A DNA stretch of 64,000 nt, taken from positions 1,844 to 65,843 of the forward strand of contig NZ_JAUYRO010000025.1 of the NCBI RefSeq assembly GCF_030696805.1, given 5' to 3'. Both the position numbers and the translations under genes were made by a program. A model generated the notes under the pieces. It searched no databases. It was not told the origin of the DNA and saw only the letters and a program-made list of their open reading frames with translations. Every line of letters starts with the position of its first letter. The stretch's first letter is position 1. Positions 7,703 through 54,243 of the stretch are shown here, piece after piece. This DNA is from Methyloversatilis sp. GTDB lineage: Bacteria; Pseudomonadota; Gammaproteobacteria; Burkholderiales; Rhodocyclaceae.

Positions 7703-7853
7703 TCCTCATGTAAGTCGTCGATCCGGGCTGCAGTCTGCGCCCGCACCTCCGGATGCAGTGGAGCATACAAACATCAAGCCCGGGCGGGGGACAGATGTTG
7801 CACCGGCGCCCTGAGAGAACGGCGGTCGCCCCGCGATCTGCACCGGCCCGCTG

Positions 7854-38585: not shown

Positions 38586-38939
38586 TTACTTGATGAAGCA
38601 GCGCTTCTTTGATTCTGCAACGACGTCCAGGTACTTCTTGACCGCGCCTTTTGTTTCATCGGTGCCGCGGAACACGCCGCCGCGTTCGCCACTCATCGAC
38701 TGGGTGCGGCTGAAGCTCGACAGCTCGACGTACTCGTCATGCGTCAGCTTGGTCGCGATTTCGTCGATCAGGCATGAACACTTGTAGATGTACTCGTGGT
38801 TGGTGCCGTAAGCCTGAAGGCATTCGAGCGCAAATTCGACACGCGAACTGGTCGGGTATTCGTTGGCCGCCGTAGCGGGGCCACCCATCAGCAGCGCGCC
38901 GAGCGCAGCGATCGTCACGTGGAAGCGATGAAATTTCAA
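38586..38939 (-). CDS. Small exported four-Cys conserved hypothetical protein
   Basis: Signal peptide then EYPT..RVEF..EC, KCSC.ID.I and RC. TTG start 7 nt after GAGGAG (ATG alternative at 38954). Confidence 0.75.
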   Translation of the reverse strand: MKFHRFHVTIAALGALLMGGPATAANEYPTSSRVEFALECLQAYGTNHEYIYKCSCLIDEIATKLTHDEYVELSSFSRTQSMSGERGGVFRGTDETKGAVKKYLDVVAESKKRCFIK

Positions 38940-39041
38940 ACCGGATCTCCTCATTTGTTATTGATGAACCGCAGGGACTCGCTGGCTGGCATCGACAAAA
39001 AGGCTAGCACATCAACGCAGACCGCCGTTTTGCCGCCCGAG

Positions 39042-40004
39042 TTGCACAGGATTGTTTCCCGATGGCTTTGCGCCGTCATCGTGATTTTCGCGGGAAGTCT
39101 GTTCAGCGCAGCGCCCGCGCTCGCGCAGCAACTGCCTGAGCTGCGCCTGACGCCGCTGGCCGAAGGCGTCTACGTGCTGCGTCCGACCTCGTCCGAAGTG
39201 AGTCCGGAAAACGCCGGTTTCGTGACCCACATCGGCGTGCTGGTCGATGTACGCGGTCTTGTCGTTGTGGGCACCGGCACCAGCCAGCGCTTTGCGCAGC
39301 ACCTGCTCGCCTTCGTCGAACGCGAACTGGGCAAACCTGTGATCGCGGCGGTCAATCTTTATGGTGGTGGCGACCATGTGCTGGGCAACCGCGCGTTTGT
39401 GTCACGGGGTGTGCCGGTTACAGCGCATATTGAAACAGACCGCTTCATCCGGGCCAGTTGCCATACGTGTGTCGAGCGCCTGACGGCGGCACTGGGCGAA
39501 AATATGATGTCAGGTACCGAACCCACCCCCGCAAGCGTGACCTTCGAACATTCAGGCCGGCTGACCGGCGTCTCCCGCAGGCTGACATTGCTGCACTACG
39601 GACACACCTTCCAGCCCGGCGCAACCGCGCTGCTGGACGAGGCAAGCGGAACGCTGTTCGCGGGCGAGCTGGCGGCGACGCACTATCTGCCCGATCTGTA
39701 CAACGCGAGTGAAACCGGCTGGGTCGCCGCCCTTGATGCGCTGATCGCACTGGGCGCGCGACAGGTGGTGCCCGCGCATGGCGCGCCGGGCGGACGTGAA
39801 GTTCTCGAAGCGCCGCGCCGTTATTTGCAGCAACTGGTCGAGCGCGTGGATGCGCTGTTCGCAGGCGGCGCAACGCTCGAAGAAGCGCTGGATCAGGTCG
39901 AACTGGCGGAATTCCGCGATTGGTATGGCTACGCCCTGTGGCACCGCCGCAACGTGCATTTCGCCTATCTGCACCGGGAGGCCCGTGCCTTCGGCCCGCA
40001 GTGA
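39042..40004 (+). CDS. Periplasmic MBL-fold protein with degenerate metal motif and a CxxC
   Basis: Signal peptide, N.GFV..IG.L....GLVVVGTG, NLYGGGDHVLGN, LFAGEL, VPAHG and HRRNV..AY motifs. Start uncertain (38964 ATG or 39042 TTG). Confidence 0.8.
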   Translation: MHRIVSRWLCAVIVIFAGSLFSAAPALAQQLPELRLTPLAEGVYVLRPTSSEVSPENAGFVTHIGVLVDVRGLVVVGTGTSQRFAQHLLAFVERELGKPVIAAVNLYGGGDHVLGNRAFVSRGVPVTAHIETDRFIRASCHTCVERLTAALGENMMSGTEPTPASVTFEHSGRLTGVSRRLTLLHYGHTFQPGATALLDEASGTLFAGELAATHYLPDLYNASETGWVAALDALIALGARQVVPAHGAPGGREVLEAPRRYLQQLVERVDALFAGGATLEEALDQVELAEFRDWYGYALWHRRNVHFAYLHREARAFGPQ

Positions 40005-40078
40005 AGTCAGGCGTGGATCAGGACACGGCCCGCAGCCGTGCCCCACACAACAAGATTGATCGATGAGGATGAGCCTAC

Positions 40079-41767
40079 ATGTCGGAACCGTTTTCCATAC
40101 CGCTTGAGCAGATGCGTCGCATGGTCAAGCCCACGCCCAAGGGGCGCCCGCTTGATCCGGTTGCCGTCGAAGAAGTGCAGGCGCTGCTCGGTCGCATGCC
40201 GCGCCGTCCGGATCTGCTGATCGAATGCCTGCACCTGTTGCAGGACACCTACCGCGCGGTGCACGCGCGCCATCTCGCCGCACTGGCGGCCGAACTGAAG
40301 ATGTCGCAGGCCGAGGTATACGAGGTGGCGACGTTCTATCACCACTTCGACGTGCTGCGCGAAGGCGAGGGCGCGCCGGCCGAACTGACCGTGCGCGTGT
40401 GCGACACGCTGTCCTGCAAGATGGCCGGAGCGGACGATCTGCTGAAGAAGCTGCCGGGCATCCTGGGCACCAGGGTGCGCGTCATTCCGGCACCCTGTGT
40501 CGGCCGCTGCGAACAGGCACCGGTCGTCGTAGTCGGTCAGAACGCGCTGGGCGGCGCCACCGAAGCGGACGTGAAGGCCGCCGTGAAGGCGAATGAATCG
40601 ACGCATCCGCTGCCCCGTTACGTCGGCTACAAGGCTTACCTCAAAGCCGGTGGCTACCAGTTGTTCCGCGATCTGGTCGAAGGTCGTCGCGATGTCGAGT
40701 CGGTCATTCAGGCGATGGAACATTCCGGCCTGCGCGGTCTGGGCGGCGCCGGATTCCCGGCCGGCCGCAAATGGCGCATCGTGCGTGCCGAGGCGGCGCC
40801 GCGTCTGATGGCAATCAATATCGACGAGGGCGAACCCGGCACCTTCAAGGACCGCTGGTACCTCGAACGCGATCCGCACCGCTTCCTCGAAGGCATGCTG
40901 ATCGCCGCCTACTGTGTCGGCATCGGCGAGGTGTATGTCTATCTGCGCGACGAGTACGCGCATGTGCGCGACATCCTGCAGAAGGAACTGAAGAAGCTGT
41001 TGGCCGCTCCGCCCTGTGCGCTGCCGCCAATCCACCTGCGCCGCGGCGCGGGCGCCTACATCTGCGGTGAAGAGTCGGCGATGATCGAATCGATCGAAGG
41101 CAAGCGCGGCATGCCGCGCCTGCGCCCGCCGTATGTCGCCCAGGTCGGCCTGTTCGGTCATCCGACGCTGGAACACAATATGGAAACCGTGTTCTGGATC
41201 CGCGACATCGTGGAGAAGGGCGCGGACTGGTTCGCCGGTCAGGGGCGCAACGGTCGCAAGGGGCTGCGTTCGTTCTCGGTGTCGGGTCGCGTGAAGAAGC
41301 CGGGCGTGCATCTGGCACCGGCCGGCATTTCGGTGCGCGAACTGATCGATGAATACTGTGGCGGCATGCAAGCCGGCCATGCCTTCTACGGCTATCTGCC
41401 CGGGGGCGCGTCCGGCGGCATCCTGCCAGCCAGTCTGGGCGACATCCCGCTCGACTTCGACACCCTGCAGCCCTACGGCTGCTTCATCGGCTCGGCAGCG
41501 GTGATCATCCTGTCCGACCATGACCGCGCGACCGATGCGGCGCGCAACATGATGCATTTCTTCGAACACGAGTCGTGCGGGCAGTGCACGCCCTGCCGCG
41601 TCGGCACGGCCAAGATGAACACGCTGATGGAAGCCCCGGTGTGGGACACCGATCTGGTCGAAGAGCTGTCACAGACCATGGTGGACGCGTCGATCTGCGG
41701 CCTCGGGCAGGCGGCACCGAATCCGGTGCGCTGCGTCATCAAGTATTTCCCTGACGAAATCAAGTGA
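40079..41767 (+). CDS. NAD-dependent formate dehydrogenase beta subunit (fused NuoE+NuoF-like, Fdh1B type)
   Basis: VCDTLSC...PCVGRC [2Fe-2S], SGLRGLGGAGFP, DEGEPGTFKDR, GAGAYICGEE and ESCGQCTPCR...SICGLG motifs. Confidence 0.93.
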   Translation: MSEPFSIPLEQMRRMVKPTPKGRPLDPVAVEEVQALLGRMPRRPDLLIECLHLLQDTYRAVHARHLAALAAELKMSQAEVYEVATFYHHFDVLREGEGAPAELTVRVCDTLSCKMAGADDLLKKLPGILGTRVRVIPAPCVGRCEQAPVVVVGQNALGGATEADVKAAVKANESTHPLPRYVGYKAYLKAGGYQLFRDLVEGRRDVESVIQAMEHSGLRGLGGAGFPAGRKWRIVRAEAAPRLMAINIDEGEPGTFKDRWYLERDPHRFLEGMLIAAYCVGIGEVYVYLRDEYAHVRDILQKELKKLLAAPPCALPPIHLRRGAGAYICGEESAMIESIEGKRGMPRLRPPYVAQVGLFGHPTLEHNMETVFWIRDIVEKGADWFAGQGRNGRKGLRSFSVSGRVKKPGVHLAPAGISVRELIDEYCGGMQAGHAFYGYLPGGASGGILPASLGDIPLDFDTLQPYGCFIGSAAVIILSDHDRATDAARNMMHFFEHESCGQCTPCRVGTAKMNTLMEAPVWDTDLVEELSQTMVDASICGLGQAAPNPVRCVIKYFPDEIK

Positions 41768-41783
41768 AGGGACGGCAATCCAA

Positions 41784-44588
41784 ATGAATGCACCCATTGA
41801 TGCTTCGGTGATCGCGCAATCGATCGAATTCACGCTCGACGGCCAGTCGATGACGGCCCGTGTCGGCGAAACCATCCTGCAGGCGGCGGCCCGTCAGGGC
41901 GTGGACATTCCGCACCTCTGCTACAAGGACGGCTACCGTCCGGACGGCAACTGCCGCGCCTGCGTGGTCGAGATAGACGGCGAACGCGTGCTTGCGCCAA
42001 GCTGCTGCCGCGCACCGACGCCCGGCATGAACGTGAAGGCCGAGTCGGAGCGCGCCGTGAAGGCGCAGAAGATGGTGGTTGAGCTGCTGCTGTCGGACAT
42101 GCCGGACCAGACCTACACACCCGATTCCGAACTGGCGCACTGGGCAGAGAAGCTCGGCGTGACCGGCTCGCGCTTCGAAGGCCGCGATCAGCCGGCATGC
42201 GACCAGTCGCATCCGGCGATGAGCGTGAACCTCGACGCCTGCATCCAGTGCAACCGGTGCGTGCGCGCCTGTCGCGAAGAGCAGGGCAATGACGTGATCG
42301 GCTATGCCTTCCGCGGTTCGGCGTCGAAGATCGTGTTCGATCAGGACGACCCGATGGGCGCGTCGACCTGCGTGGCGTGCGGCGAATGCGTGCAGGCCTG
42401 CCCGACCGGCGCGCTGATGCCGGCCGGTGGCGTCGGCATGGTGAAGATGGACAAGACCGTCGATTCCGTCTGTCCGTACTGCGGCGTTGGCTGCCAGCTG
42501 ACTTATCACGTCAAGGACGACCGCGTACTGATGGTGAGCGGCCGCGACGGTCCGGCCAACGAAGAGCGCCTGTGCGTCAAGGGCCGCTTCGGTTTCGACT
42601 ACGCGCGTCACCCGCAGCGTCTCACGAAGCCGCTGATCCGCCGTGCCGATGCACCGAAGCACAAGAATTTCGTCGTCGATCCGGGCAATCCGCTGTCGGC
42701 CTTCCGCGAAGCCAGCTGGGAAGAAGCGATCGAGTACGCAACCAGCCGGCTGCGCACCATCCGCGACACCAAGGGGCCGAACGCTCTGGCCGGTTTCGGT
42801 TCAGCCAAGGGCTCGAACGAAGAGGCCTACCTGTTCCAGAAGCTGATCCGCACCGGCTTTGGTACCAACAACGTCGATCACTGCACACGCCTGTGCCATG
42901 CCTCGTCGGTTGCGGCGCTGCTGGAAGCGGTCGGTTCGGGCGCAGTGTCGAACCCGGTACGCGATGTGCTGCACTCGGACGTGATCTTCCTGATCGGCGC
43001 CAATCCGCTGGTCAATCACCCGGTGGGCGCGACCTGGATCAAGAACGCGGTCAGGCAGGGTGCGCGCCTCATCGTGTGCGATCCGCGCCGCAACGACCTG
43101 CAGCGCTACGCCACGCACTTCCTGCAGTTCAAGCCGGACACCGACGTGGCCATGCTGAACGCGATGATGCACGTCATCATCGAAGAAGGTCTGGTCGACG
43201 AGGCGTTCGTGCGCGACCGCACTTCGGGTTTCGATGCGCTGAAGAAGAACGTCGCCGATTTCAGTCCGGAGCGCATGGCCAAGATCTGCGGCATTCCGGC
43301 CGAAACGCTGCGCGAGGTGGCACGCATGTTCGCGACCTCGAAGGCGTCGATGATCCTGTGGGGCATGGGCGTGTCGCAGCATGTTCATGGCACCGACAAT
43401 GCACGCTGCCTGATTTCGATGGTCATGATGACCGGCCAGATCGGTCGACGCGGCACCGGCCTGCATCCGCTGCGCGGCCAGAACAATGTGCAGGGTGCCT
43501 CCGACGCCGGCCTGATACCGATGGTGTTCCCGGACTACCAGGCGGTCGGCAACAAGACCATCCGCGACAAGTTCGAAGAACTGTGGGGCAGCCGTCTCGA
43601 TGCCAACCCCGGTCTGACCGTGGTTGAAATCATGGACGCCATCCATGCCGGCAAGCTCAATGGCTGCTACATCATGGGCGAAAATCCGGCCATGTCCGAT
43701 CCGGATGTCGAGCACGCCCGCGATGCGCTGGCCAAGCTCGATTGCCTGGTCGTGCAGGACATCTTCCTGACCGAAACCGCCTACTTCGCGGATGTCGTGC
43801 TGCCAGCGTCGGCCTTCCCGGAGAAGACCGGCACCTTCACCAATACCGACCGTCAGGTGCAACTGGGTCGTCAGGCGATCAATCCGCCGGGCGATGCGCG
43901 ACAGGACCTGTGGATCATCCAGCAGATGGCCAACGGCATGGGGCTGGACTGGCATTACGACGGCGCGAAGGACGTGTTCAACGAAATGCGCAAGGCGATG
44001 CATTCGATCGCCGGCATCACGTGGGAGCGGCTGGAAGCCGAGCACTCGGTTACCTATCCGTGCGAAAACGAGGGCGACCCGGGCGACGAGGTGGTGTTCA
44101 TCGAGCGCTTCCCGACCCAGTCCGGTCGCGCCAAGCTGGTGCCGGCCAAACTGATCAGCGCCAACGAGAAGCCGGACGCCGACTTCCCGATGGTGCTGAT
44201 CACCGGCCGCCAGCTTGAACACTGGCATACCGGTTCAATGACGCGCCGGGCGTCGGTACTCGACAACATCGAGCCGATCGCCACGGTCACGATCAACCCG
44301 GCCGACATGGCGAAGCTGAAGCTGCGGCCGGGCGAGGTCGTCACGGTCGAATCACGCCGCGGCAAGATCGCGCTGTACGCGCGTGTCGATGGCAACGTGC
44401 CGGTCGGCGCCGTGTTCATCCCGTTTGCGTATTACGAAGCAGCCGCCAATATGCTGACCAATCCGGCGCTGGACCCGTTCGGCAAGATTCCGGAGTTCAA
44501 GTATTGCGCGGTGCGGTTGAAAAAGGGCGGAATGCCGACCCGACTGTCGTCCTACGGCGGCGGTCAGGCGAAGATGGTAACTGCTTGA
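41784..44588 (+). CDS. Formate dehydrogenase alpha subunit (Fdh1A/FdhF type, Cys ligand)
   Basis: IPHLC...DGNCRAC, CIQCNRCVRAC, CVACGECVQACP, CPYCGVGC, NNVDHCTRLCH, LRGQNNVQG and TGRQLEHWH motifs. Confidence 0.95.
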   Translation: MNAPIDASVIAQSIEFTLDGQSMTARVGETILQAAARQGVDIPHLCYKDGYRPDGNCRACVVEIDGERVLAPSCCRAPTPGMNVKAESERAVKAQKMVVELLLSDMPDQTYTPDSELAHWAEKLGVTGSRFEGRDQPACDQSHPAMSVNLDACIQCNRCVRACREEQGNDVIGYAFRGSASKIVFDQDDPMGASTCVACGECVQACPTGALMPAGGVGMVKMDKTVDSVCPYCGVGCQLTYHVKDDRVLMVSGRDGPANEERLCVKGRFGFDYARHPQRLTKPLIRRADAPKHKNFVVDPGNPLSAFREASWEEAIEYATSRLRTIRDTKGPNALAGFGSAKGSNEEAYLFQKLIRTGFGTNNVDHCTRLCHASSVAALLEAVGSGAVSNPVRDVLHSDVIFLIGANPLVNHPVGATWIKNAVRQGARLIVCDPRRNDLQRYATHFLQFKPDTDVAMLNAMMHVIIEEGLVDEAFVRDRTSGFDALKKNVADFSPERMAKICGIPAETLREVARMFATSKASMILWGMGVSQHVHGTDNARCLISMVMMTGQIGRRGTGLHPLRGQNNVQGASDAGLIPMVFPDYQAVGNKTIRDKFEELWGSRLDANPGLTVVEIMDAIHAGKLNGCYIMGENPAMSDPDVEHARDALAKLDCLVVQDIFLTETAYFADVVLPASAFPEKTGTFTNTDRQVQLGRQAINPPGDARQDLWIIQQMANGMGLDWHYDGAKDVFNEMRKAMHSIAGITWERLEAEHSVTYPCENEGDPGDEVVFIERFPTQSGRAKLVPAKLISANEKPDADFPMVLITGRQLEHWHTGSMTRRASVLDNIEPIATVTINPADMAKLKLRPGEVVTVESRRGKIALYARVDGNVPVGAVFIPFAYYEAAANMLTNPALDPFGKIPEFKYCAVRLKKGGMPTRLSSYGGGQAKMVTA

Positions 44589-44609
44589 TACATCGTGCGA
44601 TAAAGAAAG

Positions 44610-44637
44610 ACCGGGGCCGAGTGCCCCGGTTTTTTTT
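44610..44637 (+). terminator. Rho-independent terminator after fdh
   Basis: ACCGGGGC-CGAGT-GCCCCGGT followed by a T7 run. Confidence 0.85.
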
Positions 44638-44659
44638 GATCCTGCACCGGGTATTGTCA

Positions 44660-44689
44660 TTGACGACAGGCGAGGCTGACGGATACCCT
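44660..44689 (+). promoter_or_regulatory. Putative sigma70 promoter of the B12 operon
   Basis: TTGACG-N18-TACCCT immediately upstream of the riboswitch. Confidence 0.5.
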
Positions 44690-44699
44690 GCGCGTGCTT

Positions 44700-44887
44700 C
44701 AGGTGCCCTGACCAGCGTTCGCTGCGATGGGTGAAACGGGAAGTCCGGTGAGTGCCTGCAATCAGGTCGCAATCCCGGCGCTGCCCCCGCAACGGTAAGC
44801 GAGTTGTAGCGATCCATTCAGCCACTGTGCATGACGCATGGGAAGGCGGGTCGCGCATTTCCCTCGCGAGCCCGGAGACCGGCCTGA
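44700..44887 (+). ncRNA. Cobalamin (AdoCbl-class) riboswitch
   Basis: AGGTGCC..., AAACGGGAA.TCCGGTG, CCGGCGCTGCCCCCGCAACGGTAA, GCCACTG, TGGGAAGG and B12-box AGCCCGGAGACCGGCC appear in canonical order. Confidence 0.96.
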
Positions 44888-45043
44888 CGCATTTGACCGA
44901 TGGCTGCGGTGGGCGGCGGAGGTGCGCATTTCCTTTGCCCGGTCGCTTTTCCGCGCAGGTCGTGCGTCGCTTCCCCTTTGCTTCAGACCATCGGATTTCC
45001 GCAATTCGCCGGCGGGTGCTGCCGGCGCTGCAAGGAGGTCTGC

Positions 45044-45841
45044 ATGCGTACCATTCTTCTCACATCCCTTATCGGACTGGCGTTTGCCGGGTCTGCCCAG
45101 GCCGGCCCATTTGCGCCGGCCGCCGGTCAGGCCGGCTCGACCGCCATCAGCAAGGACAGCCCGGCTTTCGTCCAGTGGGCGACCGGCTATCTCGACTATC
45201 TGCCCGGTCCCAACGTCGACGCCACGTGGCAGACGCCGCAAAAGGGTCTGGGCGTGGCCCAGGGCGGCGCGACCGACATCGTCGTGCTTGGCGACGGCGG
45301 CAGCATCACACTCACCTTCGACGGCTACATCACGAACGGCGCAGGCGCCGATTTTGCAGTATTCGAAAACGGCTTCATGGACACCTTCCTTGAACTGGCG
45401 TTCGTCGAGGTGTCGTCCAACGGTACCGATTTCTTCCGCTTTCCGAACTTCTCGTTCACGGCCAGCCCGGTCGGCGGCTTCGGCCTGATTGACCCGACCA
45501 ATATCGACGGTCTGGCCGGCAAGTACCGCGCCGGTTTCGGCACGCCGTTCGATCTCGAGGTGCTGAGCGGCGTCGCCGGACTGGACGTGAACAAGGTGCA
45601 GTACGTGCGCCTGATCGACGTGGTCGGCAATGGTTCGACCTTCGACAGCTTCCCGGCCGAATACGGCGGGCCGCACCCCATCTACGACCCGTACCCGACC
45701 ACCGGCAGCAGCGGCTTCGACCTCGACGCAGTCGGCGTCATCCACTACGCGGCACTGCCGGCCGTGCCCGAGCCGTCGCAGTGGGCGATGTACTGCGCCG
45801 CACTCGGCCTGCTCGGTCTGGTCGCCCGCCGCCGCGGCTGA
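45044..45841 (+). CDS. PEP-CTERM surface protein, BtuH-like putative B12-binding domain
   Basis: RBS AAGGAGG and signal peptide. LGDGGSITLTFD..I.NG.G.DFAVFEN.F...FLELAFVEVS.NG..F.RF core. VPEPSQWAMYCAALGLLGLVARRRG tail. Confidence 0.88.
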   Translation: MRTILLTSLIGLAFAGSAQAGPFAPAAGQAGSTAISKDSPAFVQWATGYLDYLPGPNVDATWQTPQKGLGVAQGGATDIVVLGDGGSITLTFDGYITNGAGADFAVFENGFMDTFLELAFVEVSSNGTDFFRFPNFSFTASPVGGFGLIDPTNIDGLAGKYRAGFGTPFDLEVLSGVAGLDVNKVQYVRLIDVVGNGSTFDSFPAEYGGPHPIYDPYPTTGSSGFDLDAVGVIHYAALPAVPEPSQWAMYCAALGLLGLVARRRG

Positions 45842-45874
45842 TTCTGCCTCCGCTCACCACGAAAGATTTCCGAC

Positions 45875-46663
45875 ATGAAAAAAACACTCATCACGCTCGC
45901 GCTGGGCGCACTGGCCGCCAGCCATGCCGCTTATGCCGCAACCACCGTAGCCACTTTCGACGACCTGCCGCTGGCGCCCGAAAGCCACTTCTTCCCGCAA
46001 GTGACGACCACCTTCACCAGCGGAGCGGCCACGTTCAATCACACTTTCACAAACTTCGGCGGCGGCTGCTGCCATGTTGACTGGGTGTATTCCAACCGCA
46101 CCGACACGACGACCGGCAACTACACCAATCAGCACAGCGCGATCACCGGCGGCGGTGCCGACGGATCGGGTCATTACGCGATCGCCAACTTCGGCGCGCC
46201 GACTGTCAGCTTTGCGTCGGCCGTCAGCGTGCAGGGTGCGTACTTCACCAACACGACGTTCACCGGCCTTACCCTGCTCACCGGCGACTTCTTCTCGAAA
46301 AAGTTCGGCGGCGCCAGCGGCAATGACCCCGACTATTTGAAGCTGACCATCCTCGGCAAGGACGCCGGCGGTGCGACGACCGGCAGCGTCGACTTCATGC
46401 TGGCCGACTACCGGTTCGACGACAACACGCAGGACTACGTGGTGACCGACTGGCGCTGGGTCGATCTGACGGCACTGGGCAGCGTCAGCAGCCTGCAGTT
46501 CGCGCTGGCGTCGAGCGACAGCGGTGAATTCGGCATCAACACGCCGGCCTATTTCGCGCTCGACAATCTGACTGTCACCGCCGTGCCGGAACCCGAACAG
46601 GCCGCGTTGCTGCTGGCCGGTCTTGCGCTGGTCGGCGCAATCGCGCGTCGCCGTCGCGGCTGA
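45875..46663 (+). CDS. PEP-CTERM surface protein with DUF4465 (BtuJ-like) domain
   Basis: Signal peptide. FTSG.A.F, YSN.TD, NQ.SA..GGG..GS..YA, TNTT, KKFGG, DY.KLTI.G, F.LADYR, W.WVDLT.LG, SSD.G..G.NTPAYF.LDN motifs. VPEPEQ...ARRRRG tail. Confidence 0.9.
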   Translation: MKKTLITLALGALAASHAAYAATTVATFDDLPLAPESHFFPQVTTTFTSGAATFNHTFTNFGGGCCHVDWVYSNRTDTTTGNYTNQHSAITGGGADGSGHYAIANFGAPTVSFASAVSVQGAYFTNTTFTGLTLLTGDFFSKKFGGASGNDPDYLKLTILGKDAGGATTGSVDFMLADYRFDDNTQDYVVTDWRWVDLTALGSVSSLQFALASSDSGEFGINTPAYFALDNLTVTAVPEPEQAALLLAGLALVGAIARRRRG

Positions 46664-46676
46664 TCCATTCCGGGGG

Positions 46677-46708
46677 TCACCCGCACGCCTTCAGCGGCGT
46701 GCGGGTGA
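46677..46708 (+). promoter_or_regulatory. Intra-operon perfect 13-bp stem-loop without U-tract
   Basis: TCACCCGCACGCC-TTCAGC-GGCGTGCGGGTGA between the DUF4465 gene and the TonB receptor gene. Confidence 0.7.
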
Positions 46709-46714
46709 GGTGTA

Positions 46715-48796
46715 TTGATGCATTACTTCTGCCTGTTACTGTTGTTGCCCGTGTTGCCGGGCCTGGCGTTTGCACAAGCCTCGGCGCAGCGCCTGCACGA
46801 ACTGGACGAAGTCGTCGTCAGTGCGCCGTCGGCGGCCGACACCTTGCGTATGGTGCCTCACAGCGTCTCCATCATCACCACCGAAGACATCGAGCGTTCG
46901 CCGTCACGCACCGTGGCCGAGGTGCTGGGTCGTGAAGCCAACCTCAATATCCAGAGCTATTTCGGCCGCGACAAGGGCGCCACCGTCGACATGCGCGGCT
47001 TCGGCGCCACGGCGGTCAGCAATGTGCTGGTGCTGGTCGACGGGGTCAGGCTGAACGCATCGGATCTTTCCGGCGCCGATCTGTCGTCGGTCGCGCTGTC
47101 GCAGGTCGAACGCATCGAAGTGCTGCGCGGCGGAGGGGCGGTGCGCTACGGTGACGGCGCGGTCGGCGGCATCATCCATGTGCTGACAAGGCGTCCGCGC
47201 AGCGGGCCGCTGAAAGGTGAATTCGAGGCGCGCACCTCTTCGTATGACACGCAGGAACTGCGCTTCAGCGCGTCCGGCGGTTCCGGGCCGCTGTCCGGCC
47301 GCATCGATGTCGGTCGGCTCGACGGCGACGGCTACCGTGACAACGACGAACAGCGCCGGCGCGATACGGCGGCCGAGCTGCGCATCACGCCTGATGGCCC
47401 GCTGTCCTTCATGGACGTGCTGCTTCGCGTGTCGCGCCACACCGATGAATACAAGTTGCCTGGTCCGGTGTCGCGCGAACGCTTCCTGTCCGGCAGCGCT
47501 GCGCTGCGTCGCTCGAGCACCGCGTCCCCGCTTGACGGCGGCAGTACCGACGACCGCAAGTTCGGCACGCTGTGGCGCTTCGATGTGGGCGATTTCGGCC
47601 TGATCGAGTTCCAGACCGATCACCGCACGCGCGACAACCCGTATCTGATCGGTATCAATCCGGCACTGCCGCTGAGCGATCAGCAATACACGATCGAATC
47701 AACGCGGCGAGACGTGCAGCTGCGCTACGACCTCGAGTACAGCGTCTTCGGCCGCGTCCATTCGTTCGGCGCCGGCTTCGTCACACAGTCGTCCGACTAC
47801 CTGCGTCGTGACGCCGGCCGCACCGTGATCGACCAGTCCAGGCTGCGTACCGGCGACCTGAACGGTCAGGCCTGGTATGCCGAGACGGTGTTCCGCGCGA
47901 CCGATGCGCTGCGCCTGAACGCTGGCTGGCGCAGCGATGACACGAAAAGCCGTACCGAAGCAGCCACCTACCGGCGCACCTGCCAGTTCCAGAACGTGTT
48001 CATTCCGGGCCTGGGCCTCATCCCGGTGGAAATTCCGGGCAGTTGCGTCACTGGCCTCGAAGCTGACAGCCGTTACGTGTCGAGCACGAAAAGCCATGCC
48101 GCGGAGCTGGGCGTGAGCTGGCAGCCGGTGAAAGCGCTGGTGGCGTTTGCCAGCGTATCGCGCAACTTCCGCAACCCGAACATCGACGAACTGGCGCTCG
48201 CGTCGTCCGATCTGCGCGCGCAGCGCGGACGCACGATCGAAGCCGGCATGCGCCTGCAGCCCGATGACAGGCTGTCACTCGGGCTGACGCTGTTCCGACT
48301 GCGCAATCAGGATGAAATCTACTTCGACAGCACCGGCGTGCCGAGCGTGAACCGCAACTACGACCTGCCGACCCAGCGCACCGGCGTTGAGCTGGAAACG
48401 CGCTGGCAGCCGTCGACCGCGTGGCTGTTCGCTGCCAATGCCGGCTATGTGCAGCCGCGTTTCAAAGGTACCGACGCCGACATTCCGCTGGTGCCGCGCT
48501 GGACGGCGAATGCGCGCGCCGAATGGCTGCAGACGCCGTCGCTGCGCTGGATCGTTGCAGCACGTCATGCCGGCCGACGCTTCGACGGCAACGACCTCGA
48601 CAATCGCAGCTTCGCCGAACTGCCGTCCTACACGGTGTTCGATCTTGCGCTGCGCCTCGATCTGGGCGGTGGTGCGCAACTGGCGGCTGGCATCAACAAT
48701 GTGTTCGACAAGGTGTACTCGACCATTGCCTTTTCGGAAACTTACTATCCGATGTCCGAGCGCAATGGCTACGCCAGCCTGCGCTGGCGCTTCTGA
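46715..48796 (+). CDS. TonB-dependent outer membrane receptor (probable cobalamin transporter, BtuB-like)
   Basis: TonB box LDEVVVSA, plug (SIIT.EDI, DMRGFG, VLVLVDGVR, ERIEVLRG), C-terminal LRWRF. Position in a B12 riboswitch operon. Confidence 0.9.
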   Translation: MMHYFCLLLLLPVLPGLAFAQASAQRLHELDEVVVSAPSAADTLRMVPHSVSIITTEDIERSPSRTVAEVLGREANLNIQSYFGRDKGATVDMRGFGATAVSNVLVLVDGVRLNASDLSGADLSSVALSQVERIEVLRGGGAVRYGDGAVGGIIHVLTRRPRSGPLKGEFEARTSSYDTQELRFSASGGSGPLSGRIDVGRLDGDGYRDNDEQRRRDTAAELRITPDGPLSFMDVLLRVSRHTDEYKLPGPVSRERFLSGSAALRRSSTASPLDGGSTDDRKFGTLWRFDVGDFGLIEFQTDHRTRDNPYLIGINPALPLSDQQYTIESTRRDVQLRYDLEYSVFGRVHSFGAGFVTQSSDYLRRDAGRTVIDQSRLRTGDLNGQAWYAETVFRATDALRLNAGWRSDDTKSRTEAATYRRTCQFQNVFIPGLGLIPVEIPGSCVTGLEADSRYVSSTKSHAAELGVSWQPVKALVAFASVSRNFRNPNIDELALASSDLRAQRGRTIEAGMRLQPDDRLSLGLTLFRLRNQDEIYFDSTGVPSVNRNYDLPTQRTGVELETRWQPSTAWLFAANAGYVQPRFKGTDADIPLVPRWTANARAEWLQTPSLRWIVAARHAGRRFDGNDLDNRSFAELPSYTVFDLALRLDLGGGAQLAAGINNVFDKVYSTIAFSETYYPMSERNGYASLRWRF

Positions 48797-48798
48797 GG

Positions 48799-49779
48799 TC
48801 AGTTCCGGTGCGGCACCCGCGTGCTGCGCTGCGCGAAATAGAACCACTCGTTGCCCGGTGACGAGGTCGGATTCGGAAACACGATGTAGCCGTCCTGCGG
48901 CGCCGTGACCGCCGTGCCGTCGTGGCGGCGGCCGATCAATTCGCCGGCCCTGACCGGGTCGAAGCTGCACCAGGGGCGCGCGAACTGATCGTCGGGGTGC
49001 AACCGGTCCACCACTTCGGTCAGACGCAGCAGCTCGAAATCTTCGCGTGCTGGCGTCGAGGGTTGTTCCACCAGTCCGAGATGCGCCAGCGTATTGCGGA
49101 TGGCGCGCCAGGCGAATTCAGGCGCGGCCGGATCGTCGTGCTGGCCGCATTCCAGCGTCACTGCATAGCCGCCCATGCGGCGCATGTATTCGGTGGTGCC
49201 GATGCCGTAGTCCGGATCGGTCGACAACAGGTGGGCGCGTTCGGTCGGCGCGGTGCGGGCCAGTCGCTTGCGCACGCCGGTCGCGTAGGTGTCGAGCCAG
49301 CCCTCGACCAGACGGCGCGCACCGAGCCGCAGCGCCAGTGCCTCTTCAGCAGCCGCGTGCGAGAAGGCTTCCAGCGTGCCATCGTTGTCCTGCGGCCCCA
49401 GCATGGCGAACGGTTCGCCGCCGGTGTGGAAGGAATGCAAGTCGAGCAGCACGTCGTGCGCGGCGAGCAGCGGGCACAGCACGTTGGCGATGCGGTCCTC
49501 ATAGTCCAGCGGCTCGGCAACCGGACGCAGGTTGCGGTTCAGATTGCGGTCGCCGGCGCGCCGCTTCAGCGTCCAGGCGAGCGGATTGGTGATCGGCACG
49601 AAGGTGACGGTGCCGCGCACGATGACCAGATCGCCGCGCGCCAGTTCGTCGAGCACGCGCTCGATGCCGCGCGTGCCGCCGATTTCGTTGCCGTGTACGG
49701 CGCCGAGCACGATCAGGCGCGGCCCGGCTTCGAGACCGTGGAAGGTGTGTGAGGTAAGGCTGTGCGTGGACGGATTCAT
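48799..49779 (-). CDS. Succinylglutamate desuccinylase/aspartoacylase-family Zn hydrolase
   Basis: GAVHGNE, NLNR, LDLHS and TLECGQH motifs. Confidence 0.88.
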   Translation of the reverse strand: MNPSTHSLTSHTFHGLEAGPRLIVLGAVHGNEIGGTRGIERVLDELARGDLVIVRGTVTFVPITNPLAWTLKRRAGDRNLNRNLRPVAEPLDYEDRIANVLCPLLAAHDVLLDLHSFHTGGEPFAMLGPQDNDGTLEAFSHAAAEEALALRLGARRLVEGWLDTYATGVRKRLARTAPTERAHLLSTDPDYGIGTTEYMRRMGGYAVTLECGQHDDPAAPEFAWRAIRNTLAHLGLVEQPSTPAREDFELLRLTEVVDRLHPDDQFARPWCSFDPVRAGELIGRRHDGTAVTAPQDGYIVFPNPTSSPGNEWFYFAQRSTRVPHRN

Positions 49780-49795
49780 CGGGAGGAGAAGTAGC

Positions 49796-51382
49796 TCAGG
49801 AACTGCAGGACAGGGCGGAACAGCCGGCTTTGTTGCGCGCCCATTCGGGACGACGACCGGCCAGCTCGTCGAATTCGGGTTGTTCGTCGTACGGGCGCTG
49901 CATCATCTTCAGCAGCCGCTCGATCATCGCGGTGTCACCTGCGCCCGCATCGTCGATGGCGCGCTGCGCCAGCCAGTTGCGCACGATGTATTTCGGGTTG
50001 GTCGCGTTCATGCGCGCGATGCGTGCCGCGTCCGCTTCGCCGCCATCCGTGACACGCTGCGCCCAGCGCTGCAACCATGCGAGCAGCGTGCGACCGTGTT
50101 CTGCCGAAGGCCCGTCACCGCTGTAGAAGGCTTCATGCAATGGCGCCAGTGCCGCCGCATCGCCCGCGAGGGCCGCAGCAACCGGCACCGCGGCCAGTCT
50201 GCGGAAGAAAATCGTGAAGTCGCATTCTTCCGCCTGCAGCAGCTGGAACAGTTCGCTGCGCATGGCCTGTTCGGCCTCGTCAGCGGCCGCCGGCAAGCCC
50301 AGCTTGTCGGCCAGCATGAGCGTCCAGCGCTCGGAGAAGGTCTGTTCGTAGCCCTCCAGTGCGGCATCGATCGCGGCCTGATCGTCGATCAGCGGCGACA
50401 GCGCGGCGGCGAGCCGGGTCAGGTTCCAGTAGCCGATCTGCGGCTGACGGCCGTAGCAGTAGCGTCGGCCCTGTGCATCGGTGGTGTTCGGCGTCCACAT
50501 CATGTCGACGCCCTCGAGCCAGCCATAGGGGCCGTAATCGATCGTCAGGCCGAGGATGGACATGTTGTCGGTGTTCATGACGCCATGCACGAAACCCACG
50601 CGCATCCACTCGACCATCAGCACTGCGGTGCGGCGGCAGATTTCGGCGAACCAGTCGGCGTAACCGGTGATGTCCGGGAAGTGGTGCGTCATCACCCAGT
50701 CGGCGAGCTGGCGCTGCAGGGCCAGCTCTTCATGCGAGGCGAGGATTTCGAAGTGGCCGAAGCGCACGAAGCAGGGGGCGACGCGGCACACGATGGCGCC
50801 GGGCTCGTATTCGGGATGCCCGTCGTAGAACATGTCGCGCACCACGCGGTCGCCTGTCGTGACGAGGCTCAGTGCGCGCGTGGTTGGAATGCCGAGGTGG
50901 AACATGGCCTCGCTGCACAGGAATTCGCGCAGCGACGAGCGCAGCACGGCACGTCCATCAGCACGCCGCGAGTAGGGCGTCGGGCCGGCGCCCTTGAGCT
51001 GCAGTTCCTGCCGCTGACCCGCGGTATCGATCATTTCGCCCAGCGTGATGGCGCGGCCGTCGCCGAGCTGGCCGGCCCAGTTGCCGAACTGGTGGCCACC
51101 GTAGCGCGCCGCATACGGCTGCATGCCGGGCAGGATGCGGTTGCCGGCAAGCGCCTCGACCGCTGCATCGACGCGCGCCGGTCGGCGCAACCCGAGCTGG
51201 GCGCCCAGCACGTCCGACCAGGCCAGCAGTTCGGGTGCCGCGACCGGCGTCGGCGAGGTCAGCGTGTAGGACGCATCGATGACCGGGCGCGAGCGCATGT
51301 CGGCCGAAGGGTCGGCGGGCAGACTGCGCACGAACAGGTTGTCGAACTCGATTTCATCGAGCCGTCGGGCGGCAATGGGCAT
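49796..51382 (-). CDS. selO: Protein adenylyltransferase SelO (YdiU)
   Basis: YGGHQFG.WAGQLGDGRA, QLKGAG.TPYSR.ADGRAVLRSS.REFL.SEAM, HGVMNTDNMSI.G.TIDYGP motifs. C-terminus SCSS. Confidence 0.96.
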   Translation of the reverse strand: MPIAARRLDEIEFDNLFVRSLPADPSADMRSRPVIDASYTLTSPTPVAAPELLAWSDVLGAQLGLRRPARVDAAVEALAGNRILPGMQPYAARYGGHQFGNWAGQLGDGRAITLGEMIDTAGQRQELQLKGAGPTPYSRRADGRAVLRSSLREFLCSEAMFHLGIPTTRALSLVTTGDRVVRDMFYDGHPEYEPGAIVCRVAPCFVRFGHFEILASHEELALQRQLADWVMTHHFPDITGYADWFAEICRRTAVLMVEWMRVGFVHGVMNTDNMSILGLTIDYGPYGWLEGVDMMWTPNTTDAQGRRYCYGRQPQIGYWNLTRLAAALSPLIDDQAAIDAALEGYEQTFSERWTLMLADKLGLPAAADEAEQAMRSELFQLLQAEECDFTIFFRRLAAVPVAAALAGDAAALAPLHEAFYSGDGPSAEHGRTLLAWLQRWAQRVTDGGEADAARIARMNATNPKYIVRNWLAQRAIDDAGAGDTAMIERLLKMMQRPYDEQPEFDELAGRRPEWARNKAGCSALSCSS

Positions 51383-51450
51383 GGACGTTGAACTCAGGCG
51401 AGGCAGGGCGTACGCAGACTCTATTGTGAGCGATGTGTGTGGCTGCGGGT

Positions 51451-52416
51451 TCAATCGCGCCCGAGCAGCGCCACATATTCGCGCAGCGCGTCGGCGTCGA
51501 TGTCGCGCGTGATGAACACGACGATCGATCCACGGCCCGCGTCCGGCCATTCAGCCAGCGGCGTCGGCGGATGAAGCGTGTGCTGCATGCCATGTATCGC
51601 CACCGGCCCGTTGTGCCCCTCGACATCGAACAGCGCCTTCATGCGCAGCAGGCCTGGGCCTGCGATGCCCGGCCAGCCGGCGAGCCAGGCGTCCAGTCGC
51701 TCAGCGGCAATCGGCCGCTCGAAGGCATAGCTGTCCGCGCGAATGGCGTGCGGTGCGTCCGTCATCACGGGATGAAAGCGCGCTGACCGGGGCGGTGGCG
51801 CATCAAGCAGCGCCATCAGCCCGGCGTCATCGGCCGTCGCCTGAAGGTCGGTATGTGGCGCAAAGGGATTGATGCGTTCGAGCTTGGTACGCAGCACACC
51901 GAGCGCGTGGGCGTCGGACAAATCCGACTTGCTGATCAGCAGGCGGTCGGCGGCGGCGATCTGGCGTACGGCTTCATCCTGTGTCGCCAGCGTGCCCGCG
52001 GCGTGCAGCGCGTCCACAACGGTCAGCGTGCAGTGCAGACGGTAGCGGGCGGCGATGCGGGCGTCCTGCGTCAGCGTGCGCAGGATGGGCGCCGGGTCGG
52101 CGAGACCGGTCGTTTCTATGACGATGCGTTCGAACTGCCGGCGCCCGACGCGCGCGAAGCGCCAGTGCGCGTCGCGCAGCGTCTGCGCCAGATCACCACG
52201 CAGGCTGCAGCAGACGCATCCGCCCGGCAGTTCGACCACCGGCTGTTCCGCCGAGTGGGTCACCAGCAGATGGTCGAGCGAGGCGTCGCCGTACTCGTTG
52301 ATGATGACCAGCGTGTCGGCCATTCCGGGTGAGGCGAGCAGGCGGTTCAGCAGCGTGGTCTTTCCGCTGCCCAAAAAACCGGTCAGCAGGATGATCGGAA
52401 GCGGGCGGTCGCTCAT
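51451..52416 (-). CDS. COG0523/CobW-family G3E metallochaperone GTPase
   Basis: LTGFLGSGKTT, INEYG, GGCVCCS, IETTGLADP, SKSD and LR.K motifs. Confidence 0.9.
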   Translation of the reverse strand: MSDRPLPIILLTGFLGSGKTTLLNRLLASPGMADTLVIINEYGDASLDHLLVTHSAEQPVVELPGGCVCCSLRGDLAQTLRDAHWRFARVGRRQFERIVIETTGLADPAPILRTLTQDARIAARYRLHCTLTVVDALHAAGTLATQDEAVRQIAAADRLLISKSDLSDAHALGVLRTKLERINPFAPHTDLQATADDAGLMALLDAPPPRSARFHPVMTDAPHAIRADSYAFERPIAAERLDAWLAGWPGIAGPGLLRMKALFDVEGHNGPVAIHGMQHTLHPPTPLAEWPDAGRGSIVVFITRDIDADALREYVALLGRD

Positions 52417-53357: not shown

Positions 53358-53417
53358 GGGGTGTTCAGGGGGTGAGGTGGCCGGGCGGCAGGCCCTGCGT
53401 TCGCGCGTGACTGGAGA

Positions 53418-53430
53418 TCAAATATTTTGA
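53418..53430. promoter_or_regulatory. LysR T-N11-A operator
   Basis: Palindrome TCAAA-TAT-TTTGA in the lysR/pirin divergent region. Confidence 0.7.
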
Positions 53431-53515
53431 ATGATGATATCAGCGCCATGCGGACACGCCAGTGTTCCAGATCAGCACAATTCAGTCATCGACAAACAAA
53501 TCAAGGAGATGGGCC

Positions 53516-54229: not shown

Positions 54230-54243
54230 TGAAGGAGTCCGGC

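Follow-up and report, generated by a model that had tools for sequence, protein, structure and literature searches.

Few microbes make vitamin B12 and many need it, and the way in which it is captured shapes communities. To our knowledge, the surface relay of BtuJ, BtuH, BtuG, and BtuB has been worked out in gut Bacteroides only, and we know of no treatment of BtuH other than as a Bacteroidota-specific fold without relatives. The 64,000-nucleotide stretch of Methyloversatilis sp. DNA analyzed here (hereafter, the window) raises the question of what a PEP-CTERM protein is doing at the head of a set of B12-uptake genes in a groundwater betaproteobacterium, and whether it is a BtuH-like, B12-binding beta-sandwich, as the initial annotation had proposed. 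We consider it about 60% probable that this protein, the 265-aa secreted product of gene 1 (45044–45841, + strand), which carries a BtuH-superfamily domain and a PEP-CTERM tail, is an extracellular corrinoid binder of the BtuH-like type, encoded first in a cobalamin-repressed three-gene uptake operon.

The genomic setting of gene 1 is unmistakably that of B12 uptake, because it is accompanied by a cobalamin riboswitch, a BtuJ-type neighbor, and a BtuB-like receptor. This setting, the strongest evidence available here, had gone unnoticed in the initial annotation. The unit comprises three cistrons, in the order riboswitch, gene 1, DUF4465/BtuJ-like gene, and BtuB-like TonB-dependent receptor. 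Its 5′ boundary is marked by a terminator-like hairpin with a T-run (44613–44641, +; terminator scan and sequence reading), which terminates the upstream formate-dehydrogenase-like gene (41784–44588). The cobalamin aptamer RF00174 follows at 44684–44901 (+), where cmscan gave 111.7 bits (gathering score 31.5; E 9.1e-28). It is full length (model positions 1–189 of 189) and shares its strand with the first cistron, which it immediately precedes, ending 142 nt before the ATG of gene 1. The leader and expression platform (44902–45043, +; sequence reading and RNA fold) contains the Shine-Dalgarno sequence AAGGAGG at 45032–45038, which is paired in a stem in the predicted fold (−76.3 kcal/mol, z −2.45), and no T-run terminator was found in this leader. 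From the modeled fold, we infer a translational OFF switch. A promoter scan of 44500–49000 returned no sigma-70-like site, and when expression evidence was sought, the locus was present solely in DNA runs (groundwater, biofilter, and similar metagenomes) and in no RNA run.

The open reading frame listed for gene 1 spans 44900–45841 (+). The credible start is the ATG at 45044, since AAGGAGG precedes it, the signal peptide opens there, and all homologues start there. The longer start at 44900 was discarded, as it overlaps the riboswitch and has neither a Shine-Dalgarno sequence nor a signal peptide.

Gene 2 (45875–46663, +) encodes another PEP-CTERM protein, of 262 aa, whose DUF4465 domain (PF14717, E 2.8e-49) is the BtuJ-type B12-binding jelly-roll and which matches the B12-bound structures 9HMU (E 2.4e-23), 9FCT (BtuJ1, 6.4e-22), and 9I2L (BtuJ2, 7.9e-9). 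The binding of B12 by DUF4465 proteins has been reported (PMC12751083, PMC13398666). Gene 1 itself was ruled out as a DUF4465/BtuJ protein, with no PF14717 match and an hhalign probability of 0.9% against a DUF4465 alignment; that description fits gene 2 instead. Gene 3 (46715–48796, +; PF07715 and PF00593) encodes a TonB-dependent receptor of the plug plus 22-strand barrel type, the true start of which is probably the ATG at 46718. Its best solved relatives are the entries for E. coli BtuB (E 5e-18 over the plug), while its score of 143 bits against TIGR01779 (TonB-B12) lies below the cut-off and a siderophore-receptor model scores higher. Gene 3 presumably encodes the corrinoid outer-membrane transporter.

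The gene 1 product opens with a Sec signal peptide (residues 1–20; 45044–45103, +; read from the sequence) that is cleaved after AQA, at the junction of MRTILLTSLIGLAFAGSAQA with GPF. A20, G21, and P22 at this junction are invariant across 70 homologues, and the signal peptide is helical in the AF2 model, with a pLDDT of about 55. The peptide ends in AQA followed by G and has no lipobox Cys, the mark of the lipoproteins of the BtuH family; the PEP-CTERM tag is used in its place, and exposure at the surface by a different route is plausible. The conserved, beta-rich domain of ∼215 aa occupies residues 21–236 (45104–45751, +; AF2, Foldseek, and homologue search) and has no Pfam family. The PEP-CTERM sorting signal (residues 240–264; 45761–45835, +) had been recognized in the initial annotation and holds up, PF07589 scoring 24.8 bits against a threshold of 20.7 (E 2.2e-5). 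The tail, VPEPSQWAMYCAALGLLGLVARRRG, consists of VPEPSQWA, a hydrophobic helix, and then RRRG, so that the protein has both the N-terminal signal peptide and the C-terminal layout of a PEP-CTERM substrate, in which the PEP motif is followed by a transmembrane helix and a cluster of basic residues. Several NCBIfam PEP-CTERM models, PEPxxWA-CTERM among them, gave sub-threshold matches, and no curated NCBIfam PEP-CTERM family for the passenger domain scored above threshold. The PEP tail is kept in 108 of the 120 closest homologues. No exosortase was found among the ORFs scanned at 30–64 kb of the 64-kb window. Substrates of the PEP-CTERM/exosortase system (Haft et al. 2006) have been tied to EPS-producing systems (PMC1569441), and no PEP-CTERM protein under a B12 riboswitch, or otherwise linked to vitamin uptake, was found described in the full-text literature searched.

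The reference proteins for BtuH are those of B. thetaiotaomicron, namely, BtuH1 (BT1488), BtuH2 (BT1956, PDB 7BIZ), and the C-terminal domain of BT1490, "BtuG1/BtuGH" (PDB 8BLW, chain B). BtuH has been described solely from gut Bacteroidota (PMC8941943) and as having "no known structural homologs", and the literature searched held nothing relevant on homologues outside Bacteroidota. The motif on which the proposal for gene 1 was based is genuine. It lies at residues 82–127 (LGDGGSITLTFDGYITNGAGADFAVFENGFMDTFLELAFVEVSSNG), and the string as quoted differs only trivially, in that one residue is missing between TFD and I (actual TFD-G-Y-I). The BtuH counterpart given in the initial annotation was essentially right, BtuH2 reading SLGSFGGYIIVGFDHSIPNSGNQYDFCVQGNAFDGSSEPGIVWVMQDINGNG and BtuH1 reading SLGSFGGYITVKMPKEIKNRKGYDFGIIGNPFSGSSEPGIVWVSEDANGNG. 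In the hhalign alignment, a core segment of gene 1 (residues 63–126; 45230–45421, +), which reads VLGDGGSITLTF..I.NG.G.DFAVFENGF...LELAFVEVSSN, is paired with residues 349–415 of BtuH2, and the core common to both is VSLG-x-GG-x-IT...I-x-N..G-x-DF....N-x-F...E....V-x-VS-x-D.

The suggested HHpred-type comparison of the gene 1 family with BtuH was positive, with a probability of 95.9%, E 5.2e-9, and a score of 64.6 over 63 columns. Control BtuH profiles (one reversed and 10 column-shuffled) scored 9.6–18.8, with probabilities <1%, and the likeness is therefore above chance; thin BtuH profiles gave 90.3% and 89.2%. The significant alignment covers only about 63 of the 215 domain residues, at about 33% identity. 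The C-terminal halves scored 18, against up to 18.8 for the shuffles, and a collinear C-terminal match that appears with the global or low-MAC settings of hhalign (TPFDL..LD..V.YVRI with NGFKI..G..L.YIDFIKI) is not significant and was not counted. Against PDB sequences, phmmer with gene 1 and a betaproteobacteria-only profile found nothing at E ≤ 10, and BLASTP of gene 1 against BtuH1 gave E 0.014 over 69 aa only. A cross-phylum profile was needed in the PDB profile searches (177,635 sequences), where, sorting-tag matches apart, the BT1490 BtuH domain (8blw_B, residues 429–473) came out best (E 0.0054 and 0.055). The first such profile (A3) drew matches to T9SS C-terminal domains via the sorting tags of its Bacteroidota members, and these tags were trimmed in the next (A4). 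A protein-database search with the 45-aa BT1490 fragment returned zero candidates, and a locus search based on a BT1490 fragment returned loci of B. thetaiotaomicron and B. faecis. Taken at the level of sequence, these results support the gene 1 domain as a distant homologue of BtuH, related at the superfamily rather than at the family level. It falls outside the BtuH family proper because neither pairwise nor single-profile searches link the two, the lipoprotein signal is lacking, and the domain is ∼50 residues shorter.

The predicted structures are compatible with this placement. AF2 modeled the full protein with a pLDDT of 89.8 and a pTM of 0.82, and the domain alone with 83.7 and 0.87; both models are beta-rich, and their nearest neighbors include discoidin/CBM32-like folds. 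When these two independent models were used as Foldseek queries, the E-values were modest, at about 1e-3. With the full-length model, 8blw_B ranked first (E 8.5e-4) and was the sole match at E ≤ 1e-3; with the domain-only model, 7biz_B and 7biz_A ranked second and third (E 2e-3) and had the highest TMq of all the matches listed (0.51). Dozens of CBM32, F5/8-type-C, and discoidin domains came near these scores (E 1e-3 to 1e-1, TMq 0.41–0.45), and the rmsd is about 10 Å over about 300 columns. The proposed BtuH-like beta-sandwich is partly supported, by the distant homology and the beta-rich models; membership in the BtuH family itself is not.

In BtuH2, N399 and E406 hold the nucleotide-loop phosphate of B12 through metals, and the corrin is contacted by Q333 and, through hydrogen bonds or stacking, by Y475, H476, Y510, W511, W577, and L578 (PMC8941943, PMC13616437). 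The hhalign alignment maps D103-F104 of gene 1 to D393-F394, N109 to N399, F111 to F401, and E117 to E406. Among 216 non-redundant family members, D103, N109, E117, D170, D192, and D226 are 100% conserved, and seven acidic or amide residues are near-invariant in all. The counterpart of F401 is F in just 73% of the members, and that of Q333 (Q29, in a low-confidence alignment) is Q in 39%. The other residues of the phosphate/metal site, D522, S582, and E584, fall outside the significant alignment; a register drawn by eye (EVSTEV with GFDLDA) would set S582 at D226 and E584 at D228, which is D in 69% and E in 11% of the family. Y475, H476, Y510, and W511 belong to an elaboration of ∼50 residues (WYEL...YYPNWI) that is absent from the shorter gene 1 domain and has no counterpart in its family, and W577 and L578 likewise lie in a region that cannot be reliably paired with gene 1. 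The many aromatic residues of gene 1 had been seen as suited to corrin stacking, a suggestion that does not hold in that form, as the corrin contacts are unaligned and only N399, E406, and F401 find a partner. The aromatic content is high, with 19 F, 9 Y, and 2 W (30 in total) among 216 residues, but most of these are Phe at conserved strand positions, which more likely belong to the core than face a ligand.

The unnamed family to which the domain belongs is large, with 2029 clusters at 50% identity, and extends over at least five phyla: Betaproteobacteria, Bacteroidota, Planctomycetota, Spirochaetota, and Thermodesulfobacteriota. The same domain carries two different export tags, betaproteobacterial members having a PEP-CTERM signal and Bacteroidota members a T9SS C-terminal domain, each used with a Sec signal peptide and in contrast to the lipoprotein signal of BtuH. 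In 34 of 150 representative clusters it is fused to one to five DUF4465 domains, and in giant planctomycete proteins it stands at the N terminus, followed by DUF4465 arrays and dockerin. Other fusions are with DUF4430, which we take to be transcobalamin-like, or, in the manner of BtuH2, with PKD/Ig domains. Of 14 sampled loci, 12 have a cobalamin riboswitch upstream of the family member, and the RF00174 aptamer is conserved ahead of the orthologous cassettes in loci L001, L003, L092, and L094. In all the sampled betaproteobacterial loci the order riboswitch, gene 1, and TonB-dependent receptor is kept while the flanks are unrelated, and a DUF4465 gene was called between gene 1 and the receptor in every one except L003. 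None of the betaproteobacterial cassettes has a gene for DUF5074 (BtuG). Three loci from Bacteroidota carry a DUF5074 propeller of the BtuG type, placed after the riboswitch and before the family member, an arrangement that echoes the BtuG-BtuH fusion BT1490.

The likeness to BtuH extends to the surroundings. Both are secreted, surface-destined proteins whose genes share a cobalamin-riboswitch operon with those of a BtuB-type receptor and a BtuJ/DUF4465 protein, and the relatives of gene 1 are joined to PKD/Ig domains or adjoin BtuG-type propellers. The two elements by which a BtuH-family locus is recognized, a gene of the btuB type and a cobalamin riboswitch, are found at the gene 1 locus. 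In Bacteroides, the "extracellular relay" passes from BtuJ (DUF4465, IPR027828) to BtuH/BtuG and on to BtuB. Locus 1 of B. thetaiotaomicron (L007) contains BtuK1, BtuK2, BtuH1, the riboswitch, BtuB1, BtuG-H, and BtuJ1, and the parts of the gene 1 operon match its BtuJ-type protein, BtuB-type receptor, and BtuH-like protein. The betaproteobacterial cassette differs, however, in having three genes, with no BtuG propeller and no BtuK, and in an anchoring that would rely on exosortase and not on lipidation.

In the reading that we prefer, cobalamin would turn off the three-gene operon headed by gene 1. The gene 1 product would be exported by Sec and then handled by an exosortase via its PEP-CTERM tail, and as a result it would come to lie on the cell surface or within the exopolysaccharide matrix. 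Its domain, which we see as a trimmed, distant BtuH homologue on a discoidin/CBM32-like beta-sandwich, would most likely bind corrinoids there, outside the cell. The candidate site, N109/E117 with further invariant Asp, may hold a metal touching the nucleotide-loop phosphate, as described for N399/E406 of BtuH2. At low intracellular B12, the gene 1 product and the BtuJ-like high-affinity binder would together supply the TonB-dependent receptor.

Membership in a B12 locus is no guarantee of binding, since BtuK2 is encoded in one and does not bind (PMC13616437). With this non-binding paralogue as a precedent, the gene 1 product could be an accessory or scaffold of the uptake machinery with no corrinoid binding of its own, for instance, a surface partner or lid of the receptor or a docking platform for the BtuJ-like protein; because a BtuG/DUF5074 gene is lacking from the betaproteobacterial operons, such a scaffold would take the place of BtuG. 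It is true that the context and the fusions link gene 1 to B12 uptake and not to ligand binding, and that the corrin-contact residues of BtuH are not conserved. What is conserved of BtuH, however, is exactly the ligand-proximal phosphate/metal site, with N399 and E406 at the invariant N109 and E117. Moreover, the Bacteroidota members accompany a BtuG-type propeller instead of replacing it, and the gene 1 domain bears no likeness in fold to that propeller, all of which makes a purely structural role unlikely in our judgment.

Two further alternatives concern the ligand. As a carbohydrate or matrix module of the discoidin/CBM32 type, the domain would tether B12-capture proteins to exopolysaccharide or cells, and the invariant Asp, Asn, and Glu would make up the Ca2+ site, structural or sugar-binding, that these modules typically have. 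The closeness of the CBM32, F5/8-type-C, and discoidin matches to BtuH in Foldseek fits this view, as do the association of PEP-CTERM proteins with EPS-producing systems (PMC1569441) and the N-terminal position in the giant planctomycete proteins, where an anchor might be placed. We nevertheless find such a tether improbable. The domain is about 60–70 residues larger than the galactose-binding-like beta-sandwiches of the discoidin, F5/8 type C, and CBM32 families, no sequence-profile similarity to them was detected, and its setting is B12 uptake, not glycan use. The ligand could also be something other than a complete cobamide, such as cobinamide or another incomplete corrinoid, a different tetrapyrrole, or a metal ion, with the receptor importing the same compound under the control of the B12 riboswitch. 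The near-invariant acidic and amide residues, the retention of nucleotide-loop-proximal positions next to imperfectly kept counterparts of F401 and Q333, and the better score of gene 3 against the siderophore-receptor model than against the BtuB one can be read in this way. TonB receptors under riboswitch control are, however, classically cobalamin transporters, and if the conserved site is the phosphate site of BtuH, one would expect the ligand to have a nucleotide loop. The DUF4465 family, for its part, has bound complete cobalamin whenever it was tested (PMC13398666), and we give little credence to a different ligand.

A BtuH-like gene heading a riboswitch-controlled operon in a groundwater betaproteobacterium suggests that a surface B12 relay in the style of Bacteroides exists outside the gut. 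If corrinoid binding by the gene 1 product is borne out, groundwater and wastewater Betaproteobacteria would possess a compact three-gene, riboswitch-controlled relay with both soluble binders anchored by exosortase, and PEP-CTERM cargo would have its first role in nutrient uptake within the literature searched. BtuH would be connected with an unannotated domain family that is large and spans phyla, a function would be assigned to thousands of "hypothetical PEP-CTERM / T9SS proteins", and a smaller BtuH-type scaffold would be at hand for structural and B12-capture work. More tentatively, and at somewhat less than even odds, the domain may define a broad, cross-phylum superfamily of extracellular corrinoid-capture modules of which BtuH is one specialized, enlarged branch. 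In that case, its members would recognize the nucleotide-loop phosphate via a metal site and would be exported or anchored by at least three routes (lipidation, T9SS, and exosortase/PEP-CTERM), and environmental bacteria, floc and EPS formers among them, would commonly possess multiprotein B12 relays at their surface.

The start of gene 1 (45044–45841, + strand) at 45044, assumed in the initial annotation, proved to be a true ATG within the listed plus-strand ORF (44900–45841), as it is preceded by the Shine-Dalgarno sequence AAGGAGG (45032–45038, + strand), is the first codon of a classical signal peptide (MRTILLTSLIGLAFAGSAQA|GPF), and matches the start position of all homologues. The 265-aa product ends in VPEPSQWAMYCAALGLLGLVARRRG, above the Pfam PEP-CTERM threshold, and in the ∼215 residues between these signals no other Pfam and no above-threshold NCBIfam family was found. 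The motif quoted in the initial annotation is present at residues 82–127, although one residue was missing from its transcription. A weak, below-threshold match to NF033170 (the Leptospira LIC_13355 lipoprotein family in NCBIfam) was seen at residues 82–142 (45287–45469, E = 1.4e-4) and in a Bacteroidota member of the family (E = 1.2e-3); spirochaete lipoproteins may also belong to the superfamily.

A full-length cobalamin riboswitch (RF00174, 44684–44901, 111.7 bits, E = 9e-28) is placed between the terminator of the upstream formate-dehydrogenase-like gene and gene 1, and genes 2 and 3 come next on that strand, with only short gaps between. The product of gene 2 (45875–46663, + strand), also a PEP-CTERM protein, carries a DUF4465 domain (E = 3e-49) and matches the B12-bound crystal structures 9HMU, 9FCT (BtuJ1), and 9I2L (BtuJ2), with best E-values of 1e-22 to 1e-23; it is this gene, not gene 1, that belongs to a family with experimentally established B12 binding. 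DUF4465 corresponds to BtuJ rather than BtuH (PMC12751083, PMC13398666), which left gene 1 to be assessed as the BtuH-like partner. Gene 3 (46715–48796, + strand), also under this riboswitch, encodes a TonB-dependent receptor and probably starts at the ATG one codon after the TTG given by the ORF finder. Among solved structures it is closest to E. coli BtuB entries, with matches over the plug only, and it scored under the NCBIfam BtuB cut-off and slightly higher with a siderophore-receptor model.

None of the flanking genes is obviously in the B12 unit. Upstream (38796–44588) are a NuoE/NuoF-like fusion (40079–41767, + strand) and a molybdopterin formate-dehydrogenase-like alpha subunit (41784–44588, + strand). 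Past gene 3 (48799–54813), an AstE/AspA-like gene, SelO, a COG0523/CobW-type GTPase (more likely to act as a metal chaperone than in cobalamin synthesis), and a LysR regulator lie on the minus strand, followed by pirin and a flavodoxin-like reductase on the plus strand. Because the genes directly beyond are on the opposite strand and apparently unrelated, the unit comprises the riboswitch, gene 1, the BtuJ-like gene, and the BtuB-like gene. No T-run terminator was found in the riboswitch leader, and the Shine-Dalgarno sequence of gene 1 is paired in the predicted RNA fold, from which we infer that B12 would repress translation. The only runs with DNA nearly identical to 44600–48800 were metagenomes from groundwater, biofilters, and mine tailings, and no RNA-seq run contained it.

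The domain is widespread: ∼8000 proteins match it in a 90%-clustered database, and 2029 clusters were hit (E ≤ 1e-3) when 1.84 billion representatives were scanned exhaustively with HMMER. The closest named matches are from Methyloversatilis (81%–82% identity), followed by Azoarcus, Thiobacillus, Methylobacillus, and Aquabacterium, and the domain is also present in Spirochaetaceae, Thermodesulfobacteriota, and giant Planctomycetota proteins. Bacteroidota members (∼320 aa, 38%–40% identity) end in a T9SS type-A sorting domain in place of PEP-CTERM. Such exchange of the export tag around a retained passenger argues for an extracellular role. The 216 nonredundant members show no or almost no variation at W45, G83, G86, F92, D103, N109, E117, D192, G224, and D226, with conservation of 97%–99% at D170 and D215.

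The association with B12 genes recurred among the 14 loci sampled, the window included. Riboswitch, gene 1, and TonB receptor occur together in all seven betaproteobacterial loci (the window, L001–L004, L092, and L094), with otherwise unrelated flanks, and in six of them a called DUF4465 gene separates gene 1 from the receptor. The exception is L003, from a metagenome-assembled genome: the interval (6801–7719), where the sister contig L004 has DUF4465, contains no called gene and may hold a pseudogene or a gene-calling gap. In Methylobacillus (L092, 2291–5576), the four-part cassette adjoins metE, the B12-independent methionine synthase gene, and a LysR regulator, which suggests that functions for sparing B12 and for scavenging it are grouped locally. 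Among the Bacteroidota, the riboswitch is directly upstream of the family member in L005 and L006, and a DUF5074 (BtuG-type propeller) gene intervenes in L091, L093, and L095. No riboswitch was found at L089 or L090; L089 is at a contig edge, with DUF5074 downstream.

Fusions also connect the domain with B12-related families. In 34 of the best 150 representative clusters it is fused, in either order, to one to five DUF4465 domains (confirmed with Pfam); other partners are DUF4430, which we take to be transcobalamin-like, and PKD/Ig domains, the latter as in BtuH2. The DUF4430 (PF14478) fusions are from Bacteroidota (P0382, P0278, and P0376–P0380), and at L093 (4521–11121) the order is cobalamin riboswitch, DUF5074, domain–DUF4430 fusion, and TonB-dependent receptor. 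In Planctomycetota (Novipirellula, Rhodopirellula), proteins of 1.5–2.6 kaa carry one N-terminal family domain and, after it, two to five copies of DUF4465; they may act outside the cell as multivalent B12 "sponges." Besides some 25 further representatives, they include P0128, which also has a dockerin, and P0189, whose source names it a planctomycete extracellular domain protein.

No PDB sequence was matched by single-sequence or betaproteobacteria-only profile searches. With a cross-phylum profile, the best match besides those to the T9SS tag was 8blw_B (BT1490 of Bacteroides thetaiotaomicron, residues 429–473, E = 0.0054), which was top (E = 0.055) when the tag was trimmed. This fragment led to the B. 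thetaiotaomicron locus L007, ordered riboswitch, BtuK1, BtuK2, BtuH1, riboswitch, BtuB1, BT1490, and BtuJ1. BT1490 itself (8717–10705) has the DUF5074/BtuG propeller N-terminal (match residues 51–265) and the BtuH-type domain C-terminal (396–654); in a 2026 review (section 5.1), the propeller is said to have the B12-binding domain fused "at the N terminus" (PMC13616437). This BtuG–BtuH fusion is paralleled by the family members adjoining BtuG-type propellers. By BLASTP, gene 1 protein matched BtuH1 with E = 0.014 (32% identity, 69 aa). The profile comparison proposed in the initial annotation bore out a relationship: hhalign probabilities were 90.3% and 89.2% against four- and five-sequence BtuH alignments, and 95.9% (E = 5.2e-9, 63 columns) between the 216-member family profile and a BtuH profile of 31 sequences obtained by metagenome scanning. 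The reversed and ten column-shuffled BtuH profiles scored 9.6–18.8 (<1%) versus 64.6, and a DUF4465 profile gave 0.9%.

AlphaFold2 models were confident and beta-rich for both the full protein (pLDDT 89.8, pTM 0.82) and the domain alone (pLDDT 83.7, pTM 0.87), in which only the loop GNGSTFDSFPAEYGGPHP (45632–45667, residues 197–208), which is extended in the proteobacterial branch relative to Bacteroidota members, fell below pLDDT 50. In the Foldseek check that the initial annotation called for, the sole PDB match to the full-length model at E ≤ 1e-3 was 8blw_B; the domain-only model placed 7biz_B and 7biz_A (BtuH2) at ranks 2–3 (E = 2e-3), with the maximum TMq of the list, 0.51. Modest taken alone, this model-based signal counts because the sequence profiles, an independent line of evidence, single out that rare target as well.

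The BtuH2 domain sequence was taken from the 7BIZ alignment, and its numbering fits all 14 published contact residues. In BtuH2, N399, E406, D522, S582, and E584 coordinate the Ca/Na ions that hold the B12 phosphate, F401 touches the lower ligand, and Q333, Y475, H476, Y510, W511, and W577 contact the corrin (PMC8941943, PMC13616437). The significant hhalign segment (gene 1 residues 63–126, BtuH2 349–415) maps D393–F394 to D103–F104 (100% D and 94% F among the 216 members), N399 to N109 (100%), F401 to F111 (73% F, otherwise aliphatic), and E406 to E117 (100%). A lower-confidence extension sets PAPGQF (Q333) on PAAGQA (Q29), with Q in just 39% of the family, and by eye the last strand EVSTEV could be in register with GFDLDA, placing S582 at D226 and E584 at D228. 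No counterpart of the ∼50-residue BtuH elaboration (Y475, H476, Y510, W511) was found in gene 1, and the C-terminal halves aligned no better than shuffles. The family therefore appears to have the BtuH scaffold and phosphate/metal corner without its corrin contacts, and the corrin-stacking aromatics initially proposed were not supported as stated. As gene 1 also differs from BtuH in having no lipoprotein signal, it is not a family-level member; what stands of the BtuH-like assignment is a distant superfamily relationship and a similar operon role.

Set beside the retained phosphate/metal residues, the missing corrin contacts leave some room, though rather little, for a non-binding accessory or receptor partner. 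A CBM-like matrix anchor and a binder of incomplete corrinoids or another ligand are both improbable. We favor, with a probability of about 0.6, an exported BtuH-superfamily corrinoid binder. The gene 1 product would be anchored by exosortase and bind corrinoid alongside the adjacent BtuJ-type protein, both would supply the BtuB-type receptor, and the riboswitch would turn the whole unit off at sufficient B12.

BtuH has been reported solely from gut Bacteroidota, without structural homologues (PMC8941943, PMC13616437), and a 2026 study noted that DUF4465 genes are often near unnamed "other DUF families" resembling B. thetaiotaomicron accessory proteins (PMC13398666). No paper connecting cobalamin riboswitches or cobalamin uptake with PEP-CTERM proteins came up in our literature search. 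Putative corrinoid binding by gene 1 would thus be of interest to specialists in B12 and microbial ecology, and is simple to test.
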